10,855 bases of DNA, from the NCBI GenBank assembly GCA_038231275.1, contig JBBRLQ010000067.1, forward strand, positions 1-10,855, given 5' to 3'. A program made the translations under genes and the position numbers. The notes under the pieces were generated by a model. The model did not search any database. It was not told the origin of the DNA and saw only the letters and a program-made list of their open reading frames with translations. The first letter of the stretch is position 1, and every line of letters begins with the position of its first letter. This document shows, one piece after another, positions 1-10,855 of the stretch. This DNA is from Polyangiales bacterium (GTDB lineage Bacteria > Myxococcota_A > Polyangia > Polyangiales > Polyangiaceae).

Positions 1-177
1 CCCGGCGGCGCCCGCCCGGATCGCGGGCGCCATGAACGCGGCGTTCAGCGCCCCCGAGCTCGTCGCGACGACGCGCGTGACGTCGAGGCACGGGAGCTCG
101 TTGAAGAGGACGGCGCACGCGCCCGCGCCAAAGGCGCCCTTTGCGACGCCGCCCGCCAAAACCAATGCATCGGACAT
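1..177 (-). CDS. Patatin-like phospholipase, N-terminal part (runs off the window edge)
   Basis: Manual translation from ATG 177: MSDALVLAGGVAKGAFGAGACAVLFNELPCLDVTRVVATSSGALNAAFMAPAIRAGAAG. It has the patatin Gly-rich loop (LVLAGGVAKGAF) and a nucleophile elbow (ATSSG, a GxSxG variant). AGGAG RBS at 184-188. Not in the ORF track. Confidence 0.88.
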   Translation of the reverse strand, partial: MSDALVLAGGVAKGAFGAGACAVLFNELPCLDVTRVVATSSGALNAAFMAPAIRAGAAG

Positions 178-192
178 GGACCACTCCTGTGA

Positions 193-212
193 CCGCGCGC
201 GCTCGCGCGCGG
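193..212. repeat. GC-only inverted repeat (hairpin) between the last operon gene and patatin
   Basis: CCGCGCGCG-CT-CGCGCGCGG, perfect 9-bp arms. No U-tract, so not called a terminator. Confidence 0.45.
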
Positions 213-290
213 GGCCTTCTCACGTGTCGTTGGTGTTGCGGCCGGCGACCGGCGGCGCCGAGGGGCGTGCTCTCCCTCCGCGCGTGCGCC

Positions 291-794
291 TCAGCGCGAG
301 GAGGACGAATAGACGCGGGCAAAGAAGTAGCTGTCGACCATCGGATCGCTCGTCGCGGCGTTCGTGCCGGCCGAGACCTTCACCACGTACTCGTCGCATC
401 CCGTCGCGCCCCTGAGCGTGATCGGCTGATCGACCGCGGTGATGGGCGCACGCGCGAGCTCCACCTCGCTGCCCGGCGTACGCCCCATCAGGCGCACGGT
501 GCCGCCGAGGAGGTTCGGCGCCTTCCGTGGGTCGAACGTCACGTCGATGCGCGGGCCCCAGGGAAGGGCGAGGACTTCGCGCTCCATCTTCTCGCGGATG
601 GCGCGGAACGCTTCGCTTCGGACGCTCGTCCAGAAGCGATCGGAGATCCCTCGCATCGAGGGGTCGACGTTGGGGCCGCGGCTGTTGTTGTCGCAGGGCA
701 TCGGGGTCGGATCGAGTTCCATGGTTCGGCTGACTTTCTCGTGAAGGTTGGTGACGTAGGCAAAGAGGCGAAGCACGACGGCCTGGCCGGTCAT
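291..794 (-). CDS. Hypothetical beta-rich protein, 167 aa (possible penton/minor capsid protein)
   Basis: ATG 794 overlaps the upstream stop (ATGA 791-794): MTGQAVVLRLFAYV... The C-terminal half has strand-like segments (RIDVTF, TVRLMG, ITLRG, EYVVKVS, YFFARVY). The track's N-terminal extension to 1115 overlaps the upstream gene and is likely spurious. Confidence 0.7.
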   Translation of the reverse strand: MTGQAVVLRLFAYVTNLHEKVSRTMELDPTPMPCDNNSRGPNVDPSMRGISDRFWTSVRSEAFRAIREKMEREVLALPWGPRIDVTFDPRKAPNLLGGTVRLMGRTPGSEVELARAPITAVDQPITLRGATGCDEYVVKVSAGTNAATSDPMVDSYFFARVYSSSSR

Positions 795-1435
795 CGTTTC
801 GCGTAGGCGAAGAGGAGCACCGGCGTGATGGTCGCCGGGCCGGCCGCCCCCTCGTAGGTGAAGGTGATCGACCACTTCTGAAGCGCGCTGACGGGGTAGC
901 CCTCGTCCTCGCCGTTCGGTCCCTTGAGGCGGAACCACGCGTGCGTGCCCGGTGCGAACGCGATCATCGGAACCGACGCCGGGGCTTGGCCCGTCGTGAA
1001 GAGGTCTTCGCTCCCGTTGATCGTGATGCGCACCGAGACGCGCGAGAGGCTCGCCGGATCGCCGTCGAGCGTGGTCGCGTAGATGGCGGAGGCGAAGCCC
1101 TCGCCGCCCGGCCACTCGACCTTGAGTTGCAGCGAGCTCTCGCCCGGGACGAGCGCGGGCGCGTTTTCGACGCGCACGATCTTCGACGCGCCGAGCGCGG
1201 CGAGCGGTCGGGCGAGCGGCGAGACGACGCGCTCGAGGCGGTCCAAGACCGCCGCGAGACGGTCGCCGGCCGCGCCGCCAGGTGAGCTCACGTCGCCCAT
1301 CGCCGTGGCTTGCTGCTGCTCAGCGCGCGCGCGCCGAAGGAGGCTCACCACCTTGTCCTGGTTCCGCATCGCGACGACCGGATCGGTCCCGGCCTCCGCG
1401 AGCTGGAGAGCGCGATCGAGGTAGGCGGAGTTCAT
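791..1435 (-). CDS. Hypothetical protein, 214 aa; putative single jelly-roll capsid protein
   Basis: True start inferred at ATG 1435 (MNSAYLDRA), with GAGG overlapping the upstream stop. A helical N-terminal ~80 aa is followed by about 8 strand-like segments (KIVRVE, LQLKVEW, ASAIYATT, VSVRITIN, AWFRL, YPV, KWSITFTY, PVLLFAY). The fold is an inference. Confidence 0.65.
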   Translation of the reverse strand: MNSAYLDRALQLAEAGTDPVVAMRNQDKVVSLLRRARAEQQQATAMGDVSSPGGAAGDRLAAVLDRLERVVSPLARPLAALGASKIVRVENAPALVPGESSLQLKVEWPGGEGFASAIYATTLDGDPASLSRVSVRITINGSEDLFTTGQAPASVPMIAFAPGTHAWFRLKGPNGEDEGYPVSALQKWSITFTYEGAAGPATITPVLLFAYAKR

Positions 1436-1443
1436 CGCCGCCC

Positions 1444-2328
1444 TCACTGCTGCTTCGAGCGCGGGGTGATCTCGCGCGTGTGGAGGTACACCACGATGTC
1501 GACAAAGGTCCCGATCGCACCGTCCTGCGTGGGGGGCGCGTACTCGGTGACACCCGGCGCCGCGGCGCGCGAGGTCACGTCGAAGAAGACGTCGCGCTTG
1601 ATCTCGAAGCGCACCTGAAACTTCGAGTCGACCATGCTCGAGGGGTTCCAGCGGATCTTGTCGCTCAACTTGTAGAAGTTGTTCGCGTGCGGCATGCCGT
1701 TCGTCATCGAGCCGACGTGCGCGACGGACTCGCCCACGCCGGGCACGACCGCCCGCGACTCGCCCGAGCCGTAGAGACCGCCCGGGGAGCTGATGCGCCC
1801 GAGGCGCCCGAGGAGCGCGTAGCGCGTGCTCCCGTCGAGCGTGATGTCGGCGAAGCACTCCGACCAGATCAACTTCGCGAGGAAGGCATCGCTCGTTTCG
1901 GAGAGGTGGAGCGAGATGCCGTGGATGTCGACGACCGAGCCGCCGGTGTCGTGCCGGCTGACGAGGTTCGTGTCGGCGTCGTTCGAGCGGTAGCCGGCCG
2001 GGAAGCCGGCGGCCGTCATGTCCTCGCCGCCCGTGCCGTACGAGAAGGCCACGAGCGACTTCTTCGCCAGCGTGTAGCGGAAGGTGGCGGGCGCGTTGGG
2101 GCCCGAGCTGACCTGCGTGACCGTGAAGGGGAAGCGAACCGCCGAGTAGTAGTTCTTCTGCTTCTTCATCACCTGCGAGCCGAGCGACTGGCGCGCGATG
2201 AATTTGCGGATGTGCGGGGGCACGAGGCGCGCCTGCTCGAGCATCTGCTGCCTCTGAAGGGCGTTCATCGCCGGCGACTGCCGCACTGCGCTTGCGACCT
2301 GACCCGCTCCGTTGTTCGTTCCAGCCAT
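1444..2328 (-). CDS. Putative major capsid protein (jelly-roll type), 294 aa
   Basis: Clean ORF with an A-rich leader. An N-terminal arm precedes a beta-rich body (YYSAVRFPFTV, LVAFSYG, DADTNL, VDIHGISLHL, FADITLD, KFQVRFEI, VDIVVYLHTREI). Size and context fit a non-HK97 capsid protein. The CDS is secure; the product is inferred. Confidence 0.65.
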   Translation of the reverse strand: MAGTNNGAGQVASAVRQSPAMNALQRQQMLEQARLVPPHIRKFIARQSLGSQVMKKQKNYYSAVRFPFTVTQVSSGPNAPATFRYTLAKKSLVAFSYGTGGEDMTAAGFPAGYRSNDADTNLVSRHDTGGSVVDIHGISLHLSETSDAFLAKLIWSECFADITLDGSTRYALLGRLGRISSPGGLYGSGESRAVVPGVGESVAHVGSMTNGMPHANNFYKLSDKIRWNPSSMVDSKFQVRFEIKRDVFFDVTSRAAAPGVTEYAPPTQDGAIGTFVDIVVYLHTREITPRSKQQ

Positions 2329-2388
2329 GACCGTCTCTCTTTCTTCTATATTTGATGTGTCGTTGTTTTGGTGTTTGTCGGGCGCGCG
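2329..2388 (-). promoter_or_regulatory. A-rich unstructured leader upstream of the putative major capsid gene
   Basis: The minus strand reads ...ACAAACACCAAAACAACGACACATCAAATATAGAAGAAAGAGAGACGGTC-ATG, a conspicuous AT-rich island in very GC-rich DNA. Confidence 0.55.
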
Positions 2389-2631
2389 TCAGTCGTCGTC
2401 GCCGAACGCCCCGAAGGGATCGTCGAAGCCGTCCATCTCGTCGCCGAAGTCGTCCGCGTCGCCGAGCGTGTCGGCGACCACGACGCCATTGATCGGCTCG
2501 AACCCGTTGATCGGCTCGAAGCCGTCCATCTCGGTGTCGCCGAGCGTGTCGGCCATGACCACGCCCTCCATCTCCGCGTCGCCGAGGGTGTCGGCCATCA
2601 CGACGCCCTCGATGTCGTCCATGCCGCGCAT
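2389..2631 (-). repeat. Coding tandem repeats: GVV(M/V)ADTLGD x3 and FEPING x2
   Basis: Translation MRGMDDIEGVVMADTLGDAEMEGVVMADTLGDTEMDGFEPINGFEPINGVVVADTLGDADDFGDEMDGFDDPFGAFGDDD. The units are 42 nt and 18 nt, with several synonymous differences between copies. Confidence 0.9.
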
Positions 2632-3381
2632 GGCCCGAGCTCCGACCGCCATCATGCGGTTGGGCGCCGCGATGCCGCTGCCCATCCGCGCCGTCGCGGT
2701 CTGACGCTGAAGCGCGTTCGCGGCCTGGCCGCGCGTCGCGCCCGGCGCGAGCGCCCACTGGCCCGCGGCCACCGCGTAGTTGTGCGCGATGAGGGTGCCC
2801 GCCGTCTGGTCGAACATTCCCACCAGCCCGCCGATCACGCTGCCGGCGAGGTTGGCGGCGATGTTCGCTACCTTGCTGTCGGGGCTCAGGTGCGCGATGG
2901 CCGCGCCTCCCGCGAGGCCGGCGACCGCCGCCACGGTGCCGAAGGCCATCGCCTTCATGCCGCGGTGGAGATCCATCGTCTTGTGCTCCTCGGGCGGAGG
3001 GTTCTGCTTGTGCGGGTGATGGCCGGTGTGGGGGTGGTGGCGGCGCTTCTTGCGCGGCTTCTTGGCCGGGTTCGAGGCGTGGCCCAGGTCCGAGGCACGG
3101 ACGAGCACCATGCCCGCGGGCACCGGCCCGCGGCGCTTCGTGCGCTTCTTCCGCGGCTTGGTCGTCCTCGCGGCCCCCGCGTGGTGGGTCGTGGTCGCGC
3201 GTCGCTTCGAGGTCTTCTTCTTCGCCATGACGGGTTCCTGTGCCTTCTTCTTGGGTGCAGCCTTTGGGGCCTTCGCCTTCCGGGTCTTTCCGTGTTTCGG
3301 GCCCACGTGCGCGGGCGCTGGATTCGCCACAGTCGCCTTAACGGCCCCGCGTCTAATCAATGATGCCGCGCTCGTTGACAT
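2389..3381 (-). CDS. Tripartite core/scaffold-like protein, 330 aa: K/R/H-rich N-terminus, hydrophobic middle, acidic repeat tail
   Basis: Basic tracts (KTRKAKAPKAAPKKK, KPRKKRTKRR, KKPRKKRRHHPH), Gly/Ala hydrophobic helices (AMAFGTVAAVAGLAGGAAIA, IAANLAGSVIGGLVGMF) and a D/E-rich repeat tail. Alternative start at ATG 3228 (MAKKKTSKRR). Confidence 0.8.
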   Translation of the reverse strand: MSTSAASLIRRGAVKATVANPAPAHVGPKHGKTRKAKAPKAAPKKKAQEPVMAKKKTSKRRATTTHHAGAARTTKPRKKRTKRRGPVPAGMVLVRASDLGHASNPAKKPRKKRRHHPHTGHHPHKQNPPPEEHKTMDLHRGMKAMAFGTVAAVAGLAGGAAIAHLSPDSKVANIAANLAGSVIGGLVGMFDQTAGTLIAHNYAVAAGQWALAPGATRGQAANALQRQTATARMGSGIAAPNRMMAVGARAMRGMDDIEGVVMADTLGDAEMEGVVMADTLGDTEMDGFEPINGFEPINGVVVADTLGDADDFGDEMDGFDDPFGAFGDDD

Positions 3382-3658
3382 GATAAATTCCGCCTGTGAT
3401 CACGAGGAGGCTCGTGTTTTTCTCGAAGGTGAGGAGCGGCAGGCCCCTCGTGCTGAACGTGTGGTGGTAGTCCGTGGGCATGTGGTCCTTTCCCTTCCGC
3501 GTCCGGTAGACGACCTCGACGAGCTGCCCGAGCTCGACGAGCGGAAGGAGCGGGTTCGCCGCCACCGTGTGCAGAACACGGCCGTTTCCTTCGCGGCCCC
3601 AATGCACGCGCCGAAACTCCTTCTTCGCCTCTGAATCAGTCATCCTTCGCGGTGCCAT
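3353..3658 (-). CDS. Hypothetical small beta protein, 101 aa
   Basis: ATG 3658 with a strong AAGGAGG RBS: MAPRRMTDSEAKKEFRRVHWG...LVELGQLVEVVYRTRK...DYHHTF...LLVITGGIYHVNERGIID. Globular composition. Overlaps both neighbours. Confidence 0.82.
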   Translation of the reverse strand: MAPRRMTDSEAKKEFRRVHWGREGNGRVLHTVAANPLLPLVELGQLVEVVYRTRKGKDHMPTDYHHTFSTRGLPLLTFEKNTSLLVITGGIYHVNERGIID

Positions 3659-4373
3659 CGCTCGGCCCTCCTTTCGGGTGCTTCTTTCGCCAGTACGCCC
3701 ACGCCGCTGCGCCGCCGCCCGCCAGGACGACGCCGCCCACCGCCCACGGAATCCACGTTTGTTGCGTCTCCGACTCGGCGATTGATTTGAAGACGCCCCA
3801 AACCTCCGGGTCGATCTGTCCGTTCCGCGCGAGCTGCTCGCGCGCGAGGTTCGCCACCTCGGAGGCGATCGCCGTCGTCCGAACGTTCCGGCCCTCGACC
3901 TGGATGGTCTCGCGCCGCGTGAAGTACCAGGCGGTCCCCACCACCGCGGCGATCGCGATGACGGTGAGCGCGACGATGAGTCCCCCGGTCGGATCGCCGA
4001 GGGCGAGCGCGGCACTCCGCTGCGCGCCGAGGCCGTTCAGTCGCGGGAGGGCGCCGTCCCACGGCTTCGCTTGCGCGTGGGTCGAGCGCACGAGCGCGTG
4101 CGTCGCGAGGTAGATCGTGCGGACGTCCTCGGGGGCGTGCGCGATGCTCTCGCGCGCGGCGCCCACGGTGACGAGGCCACGTTCCCCGGTGGGAAGCGTG
4201 ATCCAGGGAACCACACCCGCCTCGGCGGCGAGAAACTCCGCATCCAGGAGCGCCGCCATGGCGCCCTGCGTCCAGTCCTCGCCGTCGATGGCGAGCGCGC
4301 CGTCCCCGGCGCGCGCCATGCGGGCGAGCGCGGCCCGCCCCTTCGCGTTGTCGTATTCAAACGTGGCCGCCAT
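3636..4373 (-). CDS. Hypothetical membrane protein, 245 aa, two predicted TM helices
   Basis: AAGGAG RBS. Hydrophobic segments GLIVALTVIAIAAVVGTAWYF-TRR and WIPWAVGGVVLAGGGAAAWAYW-RKK. Confidence 0.85.
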   Translation of the reverse strand: MAATFEYDNAKGRAALARMARAGDGALAIDGEDWTQGAMAALLDAEFLAAEAGVVPWITLPTGERGLVTVGAARESIAHAPEDVRTIYLATHALVRSTHAQAKPWDGALPRLNGLGAQRSAALALGDPTGGLIVALTVIAIAAVVGTAWYFTRRETIQVEGRNVRTTAIASEVANLAREQLARNGQIDPEVWGVFKSIAESETQQTWIPWAVGGVVLAGGGAAAWAYWRKKHPKGGPSDGTAKDD

Positions 4374-4403
4374 GGCGACCGATCTCCTTTCGTGCGGCGA
4401 CTC

Positions 4404-4781
4404 TCATCGCCGGCTCCGCGCGCGCTCTTGCTCGAGCTCCTGTGCGCTGTGGACGGCCCAGACGACCGCGCCGACCGCGACGACGCCGAGCGCGCCCGCC
4501 ACCCACGGGAGCGCGGAGGAGGCTTGGCTCATCGCCGCGCCCGGCGTGAAGCTCATCGGGAAGTAGTCGCCGTCGTCGCTCGAGGGCGGCGAGCTCGCGC
4601 CGCTACTCGACGTACGGACGCCGCCGCCCGGGGCGCGCGGGCGGTCCGCGACGATGGGCGTCCCCCGCTGCGGCAGGGAAGGCGGCTTTGTCTTGAGGAT
4701 GTAGGGCTTGGTGATCGGGGTGTCGTGCTCGATGAAGCGCGTTTGCTCGCCGAGGTCCCCGATGGTGGTCACGCGCTTCAT
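4404..4781 (-). CDS. Hypothetical tail-anchored membrane protein, 125 aa
   Basis: ATG 4781 in an ATGA overlap: MKRVTTIGDLGEQ... Pro/Ser-rich linker, then TM ALPWVAGALGVVAVGAVVWAV. Confidence 0.75.
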   Translation of the reverse strand: MKRVTTIGDLGEQTRFIEHDTPITKPYILKTKPPSLPQRGTPIVADRPRAPGGGVRTSSSGASSPPSSDDGDYFPMSFTPGAAMSQASSALPWVAGALGVVAVGAVVWAVHSAQELEQERARSRR

Positions 4782-5083
4782 CGGTGGCCTTCTTTCTTCG
4801 CGGCGTTCCGCCGGTAGACGTAGACGCCGCCCGCGACCGCACCGACCAGGAGCCCGCCCGCGATGAAGGTGCCGACGCCGCGCGCGGTGTCGTTCATCGC
4901 GTTCTTCACGCCCGCCTCCACGCGCTTCTGCGCGATGCCCGCGGCGCGCTGCGCCTTCTCGTCGACGTACTGGTTGATCTTCGTGTCGACCTTCGAAGGG
5001 ATCTTCCGGATCCCGAACGGGTCGATGAAGTCGGCGAGGTCGCCGAGGGGTTCGTAGCCAATGCCGTAGAGCGGTGCGTTCAT
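4778..5083 (-). CDS. Hypothetical tail-anchored membrane protein, 101 aa
   Basis: ATG 5083 in an ATGA overlap with a GGAGG RBS: MNAPLYGIGYEPLGDLADFIDPFG... TM VGTFIAGGLLVGAVAGGVYVY followed by RR. Confidence 0.8.
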   Translation of the reverse strand: MNAPLYGIGYEPLGDLADFIDPFGIRKIPSKVDTKINQYVDEKAQRAAGIAQKRVEAGVKNAMNDTARGVGTFIAGGLLVGAVAGGVYVYRRNAAKKEGHR

Positions 5084-6099
5084 CGTCGTCCTCCATGCGC
5101 GCCGTCGGGCTCGTGCTCTTGCTGTTGCTTCCACCACCAGAACGCACCCCCTCCGGCCGCTGCTGCGGCGGCGACGCTAAGGAGAACGGCCGCCGTGTGG
5201 CCGCCCTGGGCGGGCGCAGGCGTGCCCGCAGGGGGCCGCTGGACCATCAGGGCCATCCGCGGATGCGGAGCCGCGTACTGCGGCGCGGACGCGCGGCGCA
5301 CGCCCGGTGCGGGGGGCCGAGCTCCGCCGGGCCTCCCTTGCGGCGCCATCCGCGCGACCGCTGCGGCGGTCGCGCCTTCGAGGGGCTTGCCCGCGAGCGC
5401 GCGCTTGGTCATCTCGAACGCCCCCTGAGCGAGGGGGTTGTTGGGCACGAAGTGGCTCGCTGCGGCGAGCCCCACGTCTTGCAGCTTCTTCCCCTGCGCG
5501 AGTGCGAGCCCCGTGTCGAAGGCGATCTTGCCGGCCTCGCCGCCGGGCAGGCGGCTCCGCACGGCGTTGAGGGCGATCTCGTCCCAGCGCTTGCCGGACG
5601 CGACGTCCACCGCCGCCTTCATTCCAAGGTCGACCGCTTGGGCCACGAGCGGTCCGCCGGGGATCGCCCCCTTCACGCCTGCGATGAGCGCCTCGGTGAT
5701 GGGCTTGCCGTTCGCGAGGGCGAGGCCGGCACCGATGGCGGCGCTGATCCCCTGCCCTACGCCTGGAATGAACGAGAGGCCGATCTGTGCAAACGGCGCC
5801 GCGGTCTTGAAGATGTCGACCTGGTTCTTGCCCGCGTCGAGGAGCGCCCGATCGATGCGCTGCCCGTGGGCGATGTTGTCGGCCGCGTCCCACGCCATTT
5901 TCGCCGGACCGACCGCGGCGCCCATGGCCTTTCGGAACCAATGCGGCGTCGCGCTCACGTAGGCCTTGTCGAGCGACTCGACGGCCTTGCCCACGAAGTC
6001 GAAGAAGCCGTCGACGTCCCCGAGTCCTTCGAGCTCGTCGAAGCCGTCGAGGCTGTCCGCCTGCGGTCCGAGGACCGCGACGACGTACGCGTTTTTCAT
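5080..6099 (-). CDS. Gly/Ala-rich repeat membrane protein, 339 aa (possible DNA-delivery or membrane-penetration protein)
   Basis: ATG 6099 in an ATGA overlap. Acidic leader, amphipathic helix GFFDFVGKAVESL, ~35-aa helical repeats, Pro-rich linker, and C-terminal TM AAVLLSVAAAAAAGGGAFWWW-K. Confidence 0.8.
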   Translation of the reverse strand: MKNAYVVAVLGPQADSLDGFDELEGLGDVDGFFDFVGKAVESLDKAYVSATPHWFRKAMGAAVGPAKMAWDAADNIAHGQRIDRALLDAGKNQVDIFKTAAPFAQIGLSFIPGVGQGISAAIGAGLALANGKPITEALIAGVKGAIPGGPLVAQAVDLGMKAAVDVASGKRWDEIALNAVRSRLPGGEAGKIAFDTGLALAQGKKLQDVGLAAASHFVPNNPLAQGAFEMTKRALAGKPLEGATAAAVARMAPQGRPGGARPPAPGVRRASAPQYAAPHPRMALMVQRPPAGTPAPAQGGHTAAVLLSVAAAAAAGGGAFWWWKQQQEHEPDGAHGGRR

Positions 6100-7058
6100 G
6101 ACGCCACCCGACGCGCGGTCGCCGTGGCGATCGCGGTGAGGCTGTACGCCGCCGCGGCGGCGCCGAAGACGAGGGCGGCGAGCGCCGCGAGCCATCCGAG
6201 CGCGGGCGACCGCTCCGTCGCCGGCAGCGTGTCGGGCGCGTCGTCGACGCCGCACGCGCCCATGCGGATGCACGCGTCGTCGTTCCAGAACGCGACGAAG
6301 CGCAGCGGCACGCGGTCGTCGTAGACAGGCGCGAGACCCCACGCGTTCGCGGTCGATGGATGCGCAATCGCGGCGCCGTAGTGAAACCGGCACGCGAGCG
6401 GATCGGCGAGGACCTCGCGGGCGAAGTGCGCGAGATGCGCGATGCCGCAGGCGAGCGAGTTCTCAGGCACCCACAACACGGCGCGGTAGAGCGAGGGATC
6501 GACCCCCGCGAACAGATCCGGCCGTACCATCGTCGCGACGCCGACAAGCGTCTGCATGAGGCCGTGCGAGGAGTGCATGCCGCGGCTCGCGCGCCAGTCC
6601 TCGGCGTCGCGGGCGAAGTCGCCCGGATCACTCTCGCCCGTCCGACGGGGGTAGCCGCGCTCGGTGCGCGGCGCGCGCACGTAGCCGTCCCGGTCGGGGG
6701 CGACGTCGCCGGCTTCGCATGCGAGCGTGGCCAGGACGAAGCGCTCGTCGATGCCGAGCGGATCGGCCACGGCGCGCACGGTCTCGCTCCAGCGCGCGGC
6801 GAGGTGAATCATCGTCCGCGGCGCCTTCTCGGTGCGGAGGATCCATCCGTCGCCGTCGCCGGCACGCGACCAGGTGAGGCCGATGCGCGCGAGGGGGAGC
6901 TCGACGAAGCCCGCGCCGGTGTTCACGCGCGCCGTCGCGAGCGGCGGCGCGGCGGGATCGGCGCCACGCAGGCGGAGCGCGCCTGTCTCGTCGAGGCGGT
7001 GCTCGAGCACGGAGCTCGGCGAGAGGCGGCGCCAAGCGAAGGGTTCAAGGGACAACAT
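6096..7058 (-). CDS. Lytic transglycosylase (SLT/lysozyme-like fold) with C-terminal membrane anchor, 320 aa
   Basis: Catalytic helix VLATLACE (Glu at 6714-6716), SHGLMQ motif (GLMQ 6552-6563), LWVPENSLACGIAHL segment, HYGA in place of AYNAG, and TM LGWLAALAALVFGAAAAAYSL. Start ATG 7058 with GGAG upstream. Confidence 0.85.
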   Translation of the reverse strand: MLSLEPFAWRRLSPSSVLEHRLDETGALRLRGADPAAPPLATARVNTGAGFVELPLARIGLTWSRAGDGDGWILRTEKAPRTMIHLAARWSETVRAVADPLGIDERFVLATLACEAGDVAPDRDGYVRAPRTERGYPRRTGESDPGDFARDAEDWRASRGMHSSHGLMQTLVGVATMVRPDLFAGVDPSLYRAVLWVPENSLACGIAHLAHFAREVLADPLACRFHYGAAIAHPSTANAWGLAPVYDDRVPLRFVAFWNDDACIRMGACGVDDAPDTLPATERSPALGWLAALAALVFGAAAAAYSLTAIATATARRVAS

Positions 7059-7518
7059 CGGCAAAATCTCCAAACGGGTACGCGACCCCAAAGACGTGGA
7101 CGACGCCGGCGATCCGCGTCGGTGCGGCGTACGCCGGGGCATACGGGTGAAGAGGCACGAGCTCCGGTGCGGTGGCTTCCGGCTCGAGGTCGGCCGACCA
7201 GGCGTCGGCGATGCGGACGTCTTCGGTGAGGGCGCGCGTGAGCGACGCGGAGCGCGTCGGCGTCGCCGCGACCCACAGGAGCCATTCGAGATCCGCGGGC
7301 TTCGGCACGTCACCGCCGCGGAGCCATCCGGCGGGCGGCAGTGGCCACGCCCGGACGTCGCGGAAGCCGACGTCCTCGAGCGCGTGGGTGAGGTGAGCGA
7401 TTCCGCCCGCCGCGAGCACGCTCACGACGGACGGATGCACGACGAGAACGGCGTGCAGGCGTTCGCCCTCGCTCACCTCCAGGCGGTCAGCCGACAGATG
7501 CACGGCTCTCCGCCTCAC
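7045..7518 (-). CDS. Hypothetical protein, 152-157 aa
   Basis: Fills the gap in the operon and overlaps both neighbours. Globular alpha/beta composition (LEDVGFRDVRAW, WLLWVAAT). Start is GTG 7518 or GTG 7503. Confidence 0.7.
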   Translation of the reverse strand: MRRRAVHLSADRLEVSEGERLHAVLVVHPSVVSVLAAGGIAHLTHALEDVGFRDVRAWPLPPAGWLRGGDVPKPADLEWLLWVAATPTRSASLTRALTEDVRIADAWSADLEPEATAPELVPLHPYAPAYAAPTRIAGVVHVFGVAYPFGDFADVVP

Positions 7519-8005
7519 GGCGCGTACGCTCGCGCCCCTCGAGCGTGTCTTTCAGATCGGGGAACTCGCGCGCGAGGTCCGCCATCGCCGCGGCGAACGC
7601 ATCTTCTTCCGCCTTCGTTTTATCGGCGGTGCCGATGAGTCGGGCGACCAGGGCCGGGATCAGAGCTTCCGCGAGCCCGCCCAGCCTCATCATGAGTGCC
7701 TCGCGCACGTAGCGCGACGCGATCACCTCCGCTTGCTGCGCCACGAAACAAGCGGCTTCTTGGTCGAGCCGCTTCGCTTTGAGCCTGAGCTCCTGGGCCT
7801 CGGCCTCGGCGTCCGACTCCTGGAGTCGTAGTCGACGACGCTCGAAGCCGAGGAGGGTCCTGACCGTGCGGTGCTCGAAGGTCAGCGGCTCTCCCAGCCG
7901 GATGATCGTCGGCTCTTCGTCGAAGACGAAGCCACTGCTGTCGTCGGTGTTCTCGTTCGCAGGCAACACGTCGCCTGCCGACTGCGTATGCGTCGTTCCC
8001 ATCAC
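7487..8005 (-). CDS. Hypothetical helical/coiled-coil protein, ~172 aa
   Basis: AAGGA RBS at 8012-8016, start GTG 8005 or ATG 8002. Charged helical segment RRRLRLQESDAEAEAQELRLKAKRLDQEAA. Confidence 0.75.
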   Translation of the reverse strand: MMGTTHTQSAGDVLPANENTDDSSGFVFDEEPTIIRLGEPLTFEHRTVRTLLGFERRRLRLQESDAEAEAQELRLKAKRLDQEAACFVAQQAEVIASRYVREALMMRLGGLAEALIPALVARLIGTADKTKAEEDAFAAAMADLAREFPDLKDTLEGRERTRREAESRASVG

Positions 8006-8035
8006 GATTGGTCCTTTCGGGTTTCGGTGGCTTCG

Positions 8036-8659
8036 TTACGGGGCGCTCGTGCCCCTCACGTTTCTTCGGTCGGCCCAGATGTCCGGGCGCTCGCGTACAA
8101 GTCCAAGTCGTTGCGCGGCGGCGCGCGGGTGCTCGCCGAAGCGGGCGTCCACGGTTGTCTCGGCCCAATGCCAGGCGCGCCCGTCATGGATGAGCGGCGC
8201 GACGTGCGAGACGGCGCCGCGGGCGTTCTTCACGCCGCGCACGCTCGCGCGGAGGCCTCCGGCGCGGGCCAGCGCCACGACGGCGCGCGCGTGGTCGTCG
8301 CAGTCCCCTGCCCTGTGCTTCAGCGTGTAGAGCGCGTGCTGGAAGGTCTCGCGCACCTCACGTACGAACCGCACCACGGCCTTCACGAACGCTTGCACGG
8401 CCTGCGCGTAGTCGAGCGGCGCGCCGTGGGCGCGGCGGATCCAGAGCGCGAGCGCGCGGAGGTTCGGGTGTCCCGCGTCGAGCGACGCGGCGCGGTTCAA
8501 GAAGTCGATGGCCTGCGCGTTGTCGGCGCACTCGAGCTCGAGGACGGGCCAACTTGCGCCGCCGTCGTTGTGCACGCCGCGGGCAAGCACGCGGCACCCC
8601 GCGCTCTCGGCCGCCCGGGCGAGCTCGTCTCCGGCAAGTTGTAGGGCCTGGGCGTTCAT
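8036..8659 (-). CDS. Transglutaminase-like cysteine protease superfamily protein, 207 aa
   Basis: Motifs QAFVKAVVRFVRE, TLKHRAGDCDDHA (Cys 8300-8302), SHVAP (His 8204-8206) and WHWAETT (Glu 8159-8161, at the usual Asp position). Start ATG 8659, 10 nt after the upstream stop. Confidence 0.88.
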   Translation of the reverse strand: MNAQALQLAGDELARAAESAGCRVLARGVHNDGGASWPVLELECADNAQAIDFLNRAASLDAGHPNLRALALWIRRAHGAPLDYAQAVQAFVKAVVRFVREVRETFQHALYTLKHRAGDCDDHARAVVALARAGGLRASVRGVKNARGAVSHVAPLIHDGRAWHWAETTVDARFGEHPRAAAQRLGLVRERPDIWADRRNVRGTSAP

Positions 8660-8669
8660 GGTCGCGACT

Positions 8670-9947
8670 TCAGTTCGGCTTGTTCGAGGGGTCTTTTTTG
8701 GGCGAGCGGATGTCGGGGATCGAGAGCGGGCCCTTTCCATCCATCAGCTTCGCGGCGAAGAATTGCGCGATACCGCCGAGGTGCGGCATGACCTGGACGA
8801 TCGCCTCCCGAATGGGATCGGGCGGGGCGGCAGGCGCCAGGGGCGCGCTCGGTGCCACGCTCCCCTCGGGCACCATGACGTACTCGTCGTCGTCGTCCTC
8901 TTCGTCTGCCTCGTCCTGGCGTTCGACGAGCTTGGTCACGAGCGCGCGGAGTTCGGCCATCTCGGGATCCGGACCCCGCCCACCCCGCCCGATCGCCTTC
9001 GCCTGGAGCTCCATCTGCACGATGCGCTCCTTGGACGCGAGGCGCTCGCGCTCCATCTGAAGGTCCATCTCCGCGCGGTAGCGCGCTTCGCGCTCCTTGG
9101 TCTCGCCGCTGATGCGCTGGAGCTCCTGATGGGACAGCGCCCGCGCCTCGGCGTGGGCGCGCGCCTCGGCGTCGCGCATGTACGTAATCACGGCCCACGG
9201 GTCCATCAGCGTTCCTAGGGCCGTCTGGGGCGCAGGAACGGGCATCGACGGAGGGGGTGGGGGTGCGGGCATCGGTACCGCCGCCGGCAACGGAGCCTCG
9301 TCCGGGAGCGGCGGGCCGGCGGCGATGGCGGAGCGTCCTTGCACGAGAAGCGCGCGCGACCGACCTACGGGGCGCCGCTTGCCGTCCTCGACCATGATGT
9401 ACTGGACGACGTACTGACCATCGCCCCAGCGGTCGGCGATGAGGTCCGCCGAGCACGTTCGGATCGGCCACTCGTTCGCGAAGATGCCGTCCCCCTTCGC
9501 GTCGAAGGTCAGAAGCTTTCGGTATCCCGAGGGCTCCAGGCGAAAGCATCGCCAGTCCGTCGCCTTCTCCGATCGCTGCCCGAGCCGCTGATCCTTCGCC
9601 ATCGCCCTACCTCGCTCCTTTGGGGTCTCCTCCCGCGCACCGCCGTCCGAGCACTCCTCGACGACGGCGGTCGGCGCCGCCGGTTCGGCCTCCCCTTCGT
9701 CTTCCTCGTCGCCTTCGTCTTCCTCGTCGTCCGTCTCGTCCTCCTCCTCGTCGTCTTCGTCACTGAGGGCGGTGGCGGCGCCGCTCGCGGCGTCCGCGGC
9801 CACCTCCCACAGCTCGACGTCGTCGCCGTCCGCGCGCGCCTTCGCCTCGTCGGCGCAGAGCGCGGCCACCGTGCTGAGTACCGAGGCCGGCCCGTGCGCC
9901 ACGAGCAGGGCTCGAAGCTCTCCAAGCTGTCGCGTTGAATCGTCCAT
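8670..9947 (-). CDS. Hypothetical acidic/Pro-rich coiled-coil protein, 425 aa (310 aa from internal start 9602)
   Basis: ATG 9947 (MDDSTRQL). Helical N-domain, D/E tract, globular domain (IADRWGDGQYVVQY), poly-Pro linker, coiled coil and a second acidic tract. Internal ATG 9602 has AAGGAG and GAGGT upstream. Confidence 0.75.
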   Translation of the reverse strand: MDDSTRQLGELRALLVAHGPASVLSTVAALCADEAKARADGDDVELWEVAADAASGAATALSDEDDEEEDETDDEEDEGDEEDEGEAEPAAPTAVVEECSDGGAREETPKERGRAMAKDQRLGQRSEKATDWRCFRLEPSGYRKLLTFDAKGDGIFANEWPIRTCSADLIADRWGDGQYVVQYIMVEDGKRRPVGRSRALLVQGRSAIAAGPPLPDEAPLPAAVPMPAPPPPPSMPVPAPQTALGTLMDPWAVITYMRDAEARAHAEARALSHQELQRISGETKEREARYRAEMDLQMERERLASKERIVQMELQAKAIGRGGRGPDPEMAELRALVTKLVERQDEADEEDDDDEYVMVPEGSVAPSAPLAPAAPPDPIREAIVQVMPHLGGIAQFFAAKLMDGKGPLSIPDIRSPKKDPSNKPN

Positions 9948-9956
9948 CGCTACTTC

Positions 9957-9975
9957 CGAGACGTCGCGCGTCTCG
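9957..9975. repeat. Inverted repeat just upstream of the first operon gene
   Basis: CGAGACG-TCGCG-CGTCTCG, perfect 7-bp arms, 9 nt from ATG 9947. Confidence 0.45.
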
Positions 9976-10001
9976 CTCCCATGAAAAGCCAACTCAGGAA
10001 A

Positions 10002-10017
10002 CTGAAGAACTGTTCCG
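10002..10017. promoter_or_regulatory. Possible LexA (SOS) box, Myxococcus type
   Basis: CTGAAG-AACT-GTTCCG matches the palindrome CTGAAC-N4-GTTCAG at 5/6 per arm. It lies in an AT-richer patch ~55 nt upstream of ATG 9947. Confidence 0.4.
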
Positions 10018-10055
10018 AACGATGGGGGTGCAAGCGCAAGTCCATGCGCGCGCCC

Positions 10056-10526
10056 CACGTGCACGGTGCGGAGAGTCACGTGCGAGCCACGCAGACCGAG
10101 CGCGTGGCTCACGCGAACGGAGCGCGTGAACCACGCGGAAGGCACGCGCGATTCACGCAAAATCCACGCGAATCACCGAGCCATTCACGTGAGGCGTGCG
10201 TGCCCGAAGACGTGATTTTTGCGTGGCTCACGCGTGGTTTCCGCGCTCCCTCCGCGTGGCTCGCGCGTGCCCTCGACGTGATTTCGGAGAGGCCCCCCGT
10301 ACCTTCCACGCTCCGTCCACGTGCCTCGCGCGTGAAGCGCGCGCGGTGCGACGTGCCCCGCGCGTGAATTCGGACGGAGGCTGCGCACCTCGCGCGTGAA
10401 TCCCGAACCTCGCTGCGCTCCGCACGCGTGACTTCGCGCGCGCACTGCGTGACCCCCGCAACGTCGCTCCGCACTTTCGCGACGGCGTTCCGCACACTTC
10501 GCGTGGCGCTTCGAAATGTGCACGTG
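10056..10526. repeat. Helically phased, mirror-symmetric CACG/CGTG array
   Basis: CACG at 10077, 10088, 10110, 10132, 10143, 10154, 10165. Palindrome TCACGTGA at 10185-10192. CGTG at 10211, 10222, 10233, 10255, 10266, 10277, then 10320, 10331, 10352, 10363, 10395, 10427, 10448, 10502, 10523. Confidence 0.85.
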
Positions 10527-10652
10527 GCGATCGCTTTTCGCGCAACATTTTTCTCCAAGGCGCCGCTGTCGTGGCCGTGCCGAACGGCACACCCCACGTG
10601 CCCCGCCCGCTCTCTCCTGTCGTCGTTCCGTGCCCCGCTCTTCATGAGGAGG

Positions 10653-10684
10653 AATCTACGGGCCCCACGCGACAGAACTTGTCA
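10653..10684 (-). promoter_or_regulatory. Putative WYL-activator-dependent promoter (PafBC/RecA-NDp-like) facing the operon
   Basis: The minus strand reads TGACAAGTTC-TGTCGC-GTGGGGCCCG-TAGATT. This is a GACA-N5-TGTC palindrome (10671-10683) plus TGTCG(C)-N10-TA-N3-T with the -10 at 10658-10653. It lies ~30 nt from a divergent HTH gene. Confidence 0.6.
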
Positions 10685-10715
10685 GGTTGGACGCCCGTGA
10701 ATTGCAGGCCCAATC

Positions 10716-10855
10716 ATGCGTGACGATGCCTCGACCCCGAAGAGCCGCTTCTTTCTCGCGCAAACCTTGGTGCGCCGTCCTGGCGGCGTGACGTTGCGCG
10801 CCCTGACGGAACGACTCGGCGTCTGCGAGCGCACCGCGCTCCGCTACCTCCGGGA
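10716..10855 (+). CDS. Helix-turn-helix transcriptional regulator, N-terminus (HTH_11/DeoR-like; probably WYL-domain family), runs off the edge
   Basis: Manual translation MRDDASTPKSRFFLAQTLVRRPGGVTLRALTERLGVCERTALRYLR matches the T..L.E.LGV..RT..RY wHTH pattern of YafY/PafB-like regulators. The WYL domain itself is outside the window. Not in the ORF track. Confidence 0.75.
   Translation, partial: MRDDASTPKSRFFLAQTLVRRPGGVTLRALTERLGVCERTALRYLR

Follow-up and report, generated by a model that had tools for sequence, protein, structure and literature searches.

A candidate WYL-regulator promoter with PafBC-like spacing in the control region of a putative mobile element from the Polyangiales

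We analysed a 10,855-nt stretch of DNA from a Polyangiales bacterium (GenBank assembly GCA_038231275.1, contig JBBRLQ010000067.1, positions 1–10,855; hereafter the window), in which a long minus-strand operon is separated by a non-coding stretch of 768 nt (9948–10715) from a plus-strand regulator gene with its ATG at 10716. Part of this stretch, positions 10643–10715, looks to us, with a confidence only slightly better than even, like a compact divergent control unit of a mobile, probably virus-like element. The unit appears to be a mix, namely a regulator like DriD, a palindromic site like that of DdaA, and a promoter spacing like that of PafBC, and it would most likely work similarly to PafBC. 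Where the comparison can be tested, it supports a variant that is palindromic and DriD-like, as distinct from PafBC itself. The features of the unit are listed here, with L001 denoting a syntenic locus described below.

10669–10685, no strand: 17-bp dyad, putative operator for a regulator dimer (plus strand GCGACA-GAACT-TGTCAG, minus strand CTGACA-AGTTC-TGTCGC)
10669–10674, minus strand: promoter-proximal half-site TGTCGC, at −28 to −23 or −29 to −24 for a start at 10646 or 10645, respectively
10653–10658, minus strand: putative −10 hexamer TAGATT, 10 nt from the dyad and identical in L001
10643–10645, minus strand: ATG 7 nt after the −10, at the predicted transcription start (10645–10646) and possibly a leaderless start codon
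10716–10853, plus strand: first 46 codons of the regulator gene, with the recognition helix CERTALRYLR of a winged helix-turn-helix (wHTH); the open reading frame (ORF) ends with the window

The promoter motif and its regulator

On the minus strand, TGTCGC (10674–10669) is followed by a 10-nt spacer, GTGGGGCCCG (10668–10659), and by TAGATT (10658–10653); together with a GACA-N5-TGTC palindrome that overlaps it, this motif lies exactly where a first-pass annotation of this DNA had placed it. The 22 nt from 10674 to 10653 fit the PafBC-type (RecA-NDp) motif, tGTCgg(N10)tA(N3)T. Written as TGTCR-N11-TANNNT, the pattern has a single match on the two strands of the window, as against a mean of 0.04 in shuffled windows (at least one match in 8 of 200). 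The family dyad CTGACA-N5-TGTCAG, allowing up to two mismatches, likewise matches once, at the motif site, with a mean of 0.14 in the shuffles (at least one match in 27 of 200). The looser form GTC-N12-TANNNT is common by chance (a match in 96 of 200 shuffles), and the 4-bp arms of the palindrome (GACA at 10671–10674 and, 5 nt on, TGTC at 10680–10683) are unremarkable by themselves. Taken alone, the motif in the window is only suggestive; it stands beyond chance because the same layout is conserved in related loci.

A consensus scan of 9800–10855 returned no −35/−10 pair of the sigma-70 type, and there is no −35-like hexamer 16–18 nt upstream of TAGATT. The distal half-site, CTGACA, was considered as a normal −35 and rejected, since its distance from the −10 is 21 nt. 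Between the end of the dyad and the regulator's ATG there are 30 nt, in agreement with the earlier estimate that the motif is ~30 nt from a wHTH gene, and the dyad starts exactly 47 nt before that ATG in the window, in L001 and in a further related locus, L003.

The 46-residue fragment of the regulator matches no Pfam family at E ≤ 0.01. Its single longer homologue in a set of 5.8 billion proteins, P0001 (328 amino acids, 78% identity over all 46 residues), carries by Pfam the domains HTH_11 (1.7e-5), WYL (1.3e-8) and WCX (5.1e-18), as does the regulator of L001 (2.2e-4, 1.5e-8 and 1.8e-15, respectively), which is 85% identical to P0001 and identical to the window fragment at 32 of 46 positions counted on the alignment. 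The fragment aligns end to end with the HTH_11 region of both proteins, and the start codon at 10716 is supported by their beginning alike (MRD...). These homologues support the first-pass description of the divergent gene as WYL-like, and the window gene is predicted to encode a wHTH–WYL–WCX protein.

A search with P0001 gave 28 proteins at E ≤ 1e-10, mostly 53–88% identical, and a family profile was built from 19 of them. Compared with solved structures, the profile reaches Caulobacter DriD (8tp8; 6.4e-16, full length), PafB (2.4e-4) and PafC (2e-3), and no other molecule at E ≤ 0.01, CapW and BrxR being absent. Because the regulator is encoded by a single gene and is closest to the homodimeric DriD, not to PafB/PafC, we do not regard it as a PafBC member. 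In a neighbour-joining tree (Biopython, without support values), the relatives fall into two groups, the P0001-like proteins and those linked to recA, to a helicase gene or to a gene for a ~500-residue protein (p500). A tblastn search of P0001 against 50,697 phage records gave no match.

Conserved layout across related loci

A scan with the regulator alignment, one genome per species, yielded 25 loci (354,669 nt), nearly all from Myxococcota genome bins. TGTCR-N11-TANNNT occurs 12 times on the two strands of these loci. Ten of the 12 occurrences lie 70–191 nt upstream of a regulator start, on the opposite strand, and point away from the regulator; on the regulator's own strand, none was found within 400 nt upstream in the 25 loci. 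From dyad scans of the window and the related loci, 20 sites were picked by hand, and all of them consist of a 17-bp dyad, 10 nt and a hexamer directed away from the regulator. The hexamer is TAnnnT at 13 sites, CATAnT at six and TATCTA at one, and the GTC triplet is found in 17 of the 20 proximal half-sites, L001, L003 and L022 being those that do not have it.

The genes on the other side of these promoters fall largely into a few kinds. The divergent neighbour is recA in 11 of the 25 loci (10 by Pfam and L012 by translation), and a DEAD/Hel308-like helicase gene comes after recA in three loci (L010, L023 and L025) and in L011 is itself the adjacent gene. The p500 gene has its ATG 6 nt after the hexamer in six of six loci:

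p500 start, 6 nt after the hexamer: L004 8440, L005 9796, L008 9800, L015 9838, L016 9806, L024 1624

This position, as in a leaderless mRNA, supports the hexamer as a −10 element and implies that the p500 genes may be carried on leaderless mRNAs. The same spacing puts the predicted start in the window at ~10645–10646, which fits the earlier expectation of a start near 10645–10647; the ATG lies 7 nt after the hexamer in the window, L001, L003, L017 and L018. The ~500-residue protein has no Pfam or PDB match, and a helicase match only far below threshold.

Recognition helix and half-site vary together among these loci, as set out here:

Helix xRTA[IL]RYL, half-site of the TGTCA type: the window (CERTALRYL; TGTCAG, TGTCGC) and the recA, helicase and p500 loci
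Helix SRATAxRYL, half-site of the GTCTCA/TGAGAC type: L001, L002, L022
Helix SRITVWRLL, half-sites GTTTCA-N5-TGAAAC: L003

The numbers are small, and the pairing is a pattern such as a cognate regulator–operator pair would show. In PafB, two arginines of the recognition helix, four residues apart, read the GTC triplet (PMC8635444). The window helix (R-TAL-R) has the same arginine spacing, by a comparison made by eye and not by alignment. The window's RTALRYL helix and TGTC half-site are those of the chromosomal recA-linked regulators, so that cross-activation between the element and the host's repair regulon is conceivable.

Among the 25 loci, L001 is the only one with homologues of the window operon. 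Gene 1 (44% identity) and the start of gene 2 (72%) are both divergent from the regulator there, and on the regulator's far side lie a DksA/TraR zinc-finger gene, a gene for a ParA-like ATPase and a tyrosine integrase gene. Since the L001 regulator thus sits between the gene 1/gene 2 operon and the integrase side, it belongs to the inside of a mobile element and not to flanking host DNA. The intergenic regions of the window and L001 are identical at 25 of 26 positions over 10637–10662, which hold TAGATT and the downstream ATG, and the rest aligns poorly. The L001 dyad, GTCTCA-N5-TGCGAC, has the same position and is better than that of the window.

At 2215–2247 of L001, the dyad is also followed, 10 nt off on the regulator's side, by TATGAT, which makes a symmetric two-way promoter. 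The corresponding position reads CGTGAA in the window and CTTCTT in L003. Second dyads were seen elsewhere as well: at −70 in L007 (1018) and L010 (9931), each followed 10 nt on by TTGACA on the regulator's side; at −69 in L025 (9932), without TTGACA; and at −93 in L005 (9909), without a hexamer. In L003 there is a second full site at 11751, 1.75 kb downstream from where the regulator begins. These second sites might serve autoregulation or further targets.

The recA side of the family is of interest on its own. In L004–L008, L010–L018 and L023–L025, all from Myxococcota bins, WYL regulators are divergent from recA, a Hel308-like helicase gene or the p500 gene, and dyad-N10-(−10) promoters with PafBC-like spacing lie 70–200 nt upstream of the regulator (L025 is without a full site). 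We know of no regulator for part of the genes of the myxobacterial LexA-independent damage response. Two damage-induced WYL proteins of unknown role have been reported in myxobacteria (PMC12288472). We put forward the recA-linked WYL family as a candidate for the LexA-independent damage regulator of the Myxococcota, and in a literature search that included PMC12288472 we found no published description of it.

Comparison with known systems and the sign of control

Four known systems bear on how the unit might work. First, PafBC promoters have the form tGTCgg(N10)tA(N3)T. Its 5' part occupies −23 to −28, a −35 is missing, and the PafBC heterodimer is wedged between sigma region 4 and the DNA (PMC8635444); the site is non-palindromic and bound by the heterodimer (PMC6789036). 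The window unit shares the 22-nt layout (GTC element, 10 nt, TAnnnT), the lack of a detectable −35, a predicted WYL regulator and, in its relatives, recA as a target, and the TGTCGC half-site has a position like that of the PafBC −26 element, given a start at 10645 or 10646. It differs in that the site is a dyad, that there is a single regulator gene (followed in L001 by the DksA/TraR gene), that similarity to PafB/PafC is weak, and that PafBC belongs to the Actinobacteria whereas the window's relatives come from Myxococcota bins. The proposal of a PafBC/RecA-NDp-like promoter, made in the first-pass annotation, thus holds for the 22-nt layout, which recurs before recA and helicase genes, and not for the regulator, which is no PafBC member, nor for the site, which is a dyad.

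Second, DriD of Caulobacter crescentus is a homodimeric wHTH–WYL–WCX activator that binds a palindrome and its own promoter and regulates recA; its 20-bp site lies upstream of a normal −35, at promoters with both −35 and −10 (PMC9186387). DriD is the closest solved structure to the regulator family, with similarity over the full length. However, the DriD-type arrangement was not found here, where the dyad, separated from the −10 by 10 nt, overlaps the −35 position and is accompanied by no −35. Third, DdaA (Acinetobacter/Moraxellaceae) activates recA along with further repair genes; this WYL protein binds the palindrome CGWCA-N5-TGWCG, centred on no −10 but some ~50 bp ahead of the transcription start (PMC12392091). 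The window's CGACA-GAACT-TGTCA fits nine of the ten specified bases; unlike the DdaA site, it lies only 10 nt from the −10. Fourth, CapW and BrxR are wHTH–WYL–WCX repressors found on mobile islands; their palindromic sites lie in promoters of adjacent operons, and single-stranded DNA (ssDNA) releases them (PMC11662680). They share with the window the domain order, a palindromic operator in a neighbouring operon's promoter on mobile DNA and, on the scheme below, ssDNA as the signal. They are, however, repressors of defence systems, whereas the window operon has no PADLOC match and the family profile misses both at E ≤ 0.01.

We propose the following scheme. What the data show directly is the motif, the conservation of its layout, the family to which the homologous regulators belong and the synteny with L001; binding, activation over repression, the ligand, the start site, read-through and a viral character of the operon are inferred. 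The neighbouring wHTH–WYL–WCX regulator, as a dimer, would bind the 17-bp dyad at 10669–10685. The TAGATT −10, without a −35, would lie 10 bases off on the strand that leads away from the regulator gene, and because of this distance and the missing −35 the proximal half-site falls at the position of the PafBC −26 element. With a ligand on its WYL/WCX module, the dimer would let the housekeeping RNA polymerase start at ~10645–10646; by homology, the ligand would most likely be ssDNA, arising from damage or from the replication of foreign DNA. The transcript would then run through a ~700-nt, repeat-filled leader into the operon of ~12 genes, which include jelly-roll and membrane proteins. The element would in this way read DNA damage directly, without a cleavage step of the LexA/CI type.

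Several observations weigh against this scheme. The window dyad is imperfect, with four of six complementary pairs in its 6-N5-6 arrangement, and the window regulator's own WYL and WCX domains would lie past codon 46. Eleven DriD residues have been reported to touch ssDNA (PMC9186387). In a mapping made by hand from the profile alignment to 8tp8, on homologues and not on the window's own protein, two of the 11 are identical (Tyr192 and Arg204), Trp206 and Arg288 are both replaced by Phe, and seven (Tyr168, Ser172, Arg176, Arg178, Lys202, Arg207 and Tyr240) are lost in the family. L001 has TGCGAC at the position of the window's TGTCGC, and since it is the closest syntenic relative, the PafBC-like GTC is not constant in the sub-family. 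Six of the 25 loci (L002, L009, L019, L020, L021 and L025) have no full dyad-N10-hexamer, several of them with short or truncated upstream sequence; in L002, the dyad GTCTCG-N5-TGAGAC is present and the hexamer absent. Given the distance of ~700 nt, gene 1 may also have a second, nearer promoter. Finally, a dimer covering ~−23 to −40 could equally block the polymerase.

This last point leads to the rival whereby the WYL dimer is a repressor of the CapW/BrxR type, sitting on the dyad until ssDNA releases it, and damage induces the operon by de-repression. The dyad would occupy the region that a repressor would occlude; known wHTH–WYL–WCX repressors bind palindromes of neighbouring operons and let go of DNA on ssDNA (PMC11662680); and the distal half-site, CTGACA, resembles TTGACA. 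Nevertheless, we consider repression unlikely, as no −35-like hexamer lies at 16–18 nt (CTGACA being 21 nt away), the profile reaches DriD, PafB and PafC and neither CapW nor BrxR, the layout equals the −26 arrangement of PafBC, and the relatives are found at recA, like the activators PafBC, DriD and DdaA. It is for the missing −35, the PafBC spacing, the profile's proximity to activators and the relatives at recA that activation is favoured. The operon would respond to the ligand whether the regulator activates or represses.

Prophage induction proceeds mostly via RecA-stimulated cleavage of a CI/LexA-type repressor, or via antirepressors. If the scheme is true, a mobile element's main operon driven directly by a WYL sensor would represent a different induction logic, and a literature search at abstract level found no published description of such a case. 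A broader claim, of which we are doubtful, is that a virus-like mobile element, in a host of high GC that is probably a myxobacterium, has a copy of the host's LexA-independent master regulator of DNA damage and uses it, together with that regulator's promoter type, as an induction switch, with a homodimeric WYL protein, a palindromic −26 site and sigma adaptation outside the Actinobacteria. To our knowledge, the arrangement of a −26 element without a −35 has so far been described for the actinobacterial PafBC heterodimer. Here, at recA and helicase genes in numerous Myxococcota bins, PafBC-like spacing goes together with a palindrome and with a DriD-like regulator encoded by one gene, and a wider spread of sigma adaptation thereby becomes directly testable.

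The leader, the operon and its possible viral nature

Downstream of the promoter, the window (~70% G+C) has a profile of G+C at third codon positions (GC3) that outlines a single long minus-strand operon of roughly 12 genes, running from ~9947 down to 291. The remaining features are:

9948–10642, minus strand: leader of ~700 nt, non-coding by composition (GC3), with short repeats (repeat analysis)
8670–9947, minus strand: gene 1 of the operon, 425 amino acids from ATG 9947; acidic, proline-rich, with coiled-coil stretches and no known family
291–8740, minus strand: remaining operon of ~11 genes, including a transglutaminase-like protein (8036–8740), membrane proteins and a jelly-roll protein (1444–2328)

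The leader repeats have periods of 11, 22 and 32 nt and the core CGCGTGA and its inverse. Seven of the 12 window copies of CGCGTGA fall within 10100–10540, and those nearer gene 1 (10109 and 10228) run opposite to those on the promoter side (10329–10425); a similar copy, CGCCCGTGAATT, lies at 10692–10703, between the dyad and the regulator ATG. The leader of L001 (1590–2180) is of similar length and also filled with repeats, with periods of 11 and 33 nt and a differing core (GCACTCC / GGACACTC; inverted AGTGC near gene 1), and it looks as if repeats and element had changed together. Such helical phasing would point to sites bound by proteins, for instance origin iterons or a partition site.

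The length of the leader raises the alternative that the promoter serves a local product only, either a leaderless small ORF or a structured leader RNA, and that the operon has its own promoter nearer 9947. Speaking for it are the ~700 nt between the −10 and gene 1, the ATG that lies exactly 7 nt past the −10 in both the window and L001, and a leader RNA that folds better than shuffled sequence (z −3.9, on 20 shuffles only). However, scans of 9800–10855 found no terminator-like site between the promoter and gene 1 and no sigma-70-like promoter nearer gene 1, and Rfam has no match (whole window, E ≤ 1). Nor do the ORFs that begin at these ATGs look like genes. They span 178 codons in the window and 189 in L001 (1622–2191, minus strand), and only the first ~8 residues are alike (MKS..RN); the alignment of the two proteins scores 53, against 38.7 ± 6.6 for shuffles with a maximum of 69. 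The 178-codon ORF from ATG 10645 (10109–10645, minus strand) was rejected as a gene on its codon-position GC (0.66/0.64/0.70) and its dissimilar L001 counterpart; with a leaderless mRNA, translation of the two ORFs would still be possible. Altogether, we regard a purely local product as improbable, and keep to transcription through the leader into the operon.

The ORF of gene 1 opens apparently at 10160, and gene-like GC3 begins only from ~9935, for which reason ATG 9947 is the likely start. The L001 homologue of gene 1 has the same position, and there are only six homologues in the set of 5.8 billion proteins, none of them informatively named. Of the 14 window proteins searched (Pfam, PHROGs, PADLOC and NCBIfam), almost none from the operon has a known family. 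The only Pfam match above the cut-off is Transglut_core (E 3.9e-7), in the protein at 8036–8740, and matches to DUF4307, PopD and LpqS were ignored as far below the cut-offs. NCBIfam likewise gave matches only far below the cut-off, and PADLOC found none of its families. A guess from a 'GLMQ' motif that 6096–7058 encodes a lytic transglycosylase was dropped, with nothing found in its support. A blastn search of 9900–10855 against 72,556 plasmids gave no match.

The jelly-roll protein (g10; 1444–2328, minus strand; 294 amino acids) bears on the possible viral nature of the operon. Its model is confident (pLDDT 92.8) and adopts a jelly-roll fold, and its family, which is without annotation, comprises 230 clusters at E ≤ 1e-3 and 18 at E ≤ 1e-30, with no Pfam family and no close relative in species-representative genomes (searched with a small family alignment). 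Foldseek against BFVD gave six matches at E ≤ 1e-3, none with a TM score above 0.46; these were used as a lead only, on account of the low scores. All 30 of its feature neighbours in the Atlas are nearly all-viral clusters (97–100% in the rows shown), at scores of 0.91–0.93 and with low recognition. On this evidence g10 may, weakly, be proposed as a capsid protein. An integrase and a ParA-like gene are present in the syntenic L001 only.

Weighing against a virus are the absence of any PHROGs match among the 14 proteins, of any PDB match for the g10 model at E ≤ 1e-3 (Foldseek) and of any tblastn match for g10 in the 50,697 phage records; Pfam, PHROGs and NCBIfam revealed no packaging ATPase, portal or tail gene in the window. 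The viral signals are weak, and we hold a temperate, virus-like element to be moderately probable. The competing explanation is that the operon is non-viral, being cell-envelope or defence-type cargo of an integrative element under a WYL protein. The missing PHROGs matches and the lack of a recognisable packaging, portal or tail gene fit this explanation, as do the many membrane proteins and the transglutaminase-like protein of the operon, and WYL regulators commonly flank defence systems (PMC9122601). Against it stand the lack of any PADLOC match and g10, with its confident jelly-roll model, nearly all-viral Atlas neighbours and six BFVD matches (low TM). We think of non-viral cargo as a real, if minority, possibility.

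Some further features of the operon proteins may be recorded. The proteins at 2389–3381 and 5080–6099 (both minus strand) have, at one end, short acidic repeats in which D, G and F abound and, for example, GVVMADTLGD occurs twice, and several operon proteins carry hydrophobic stretches at the C-terminus.

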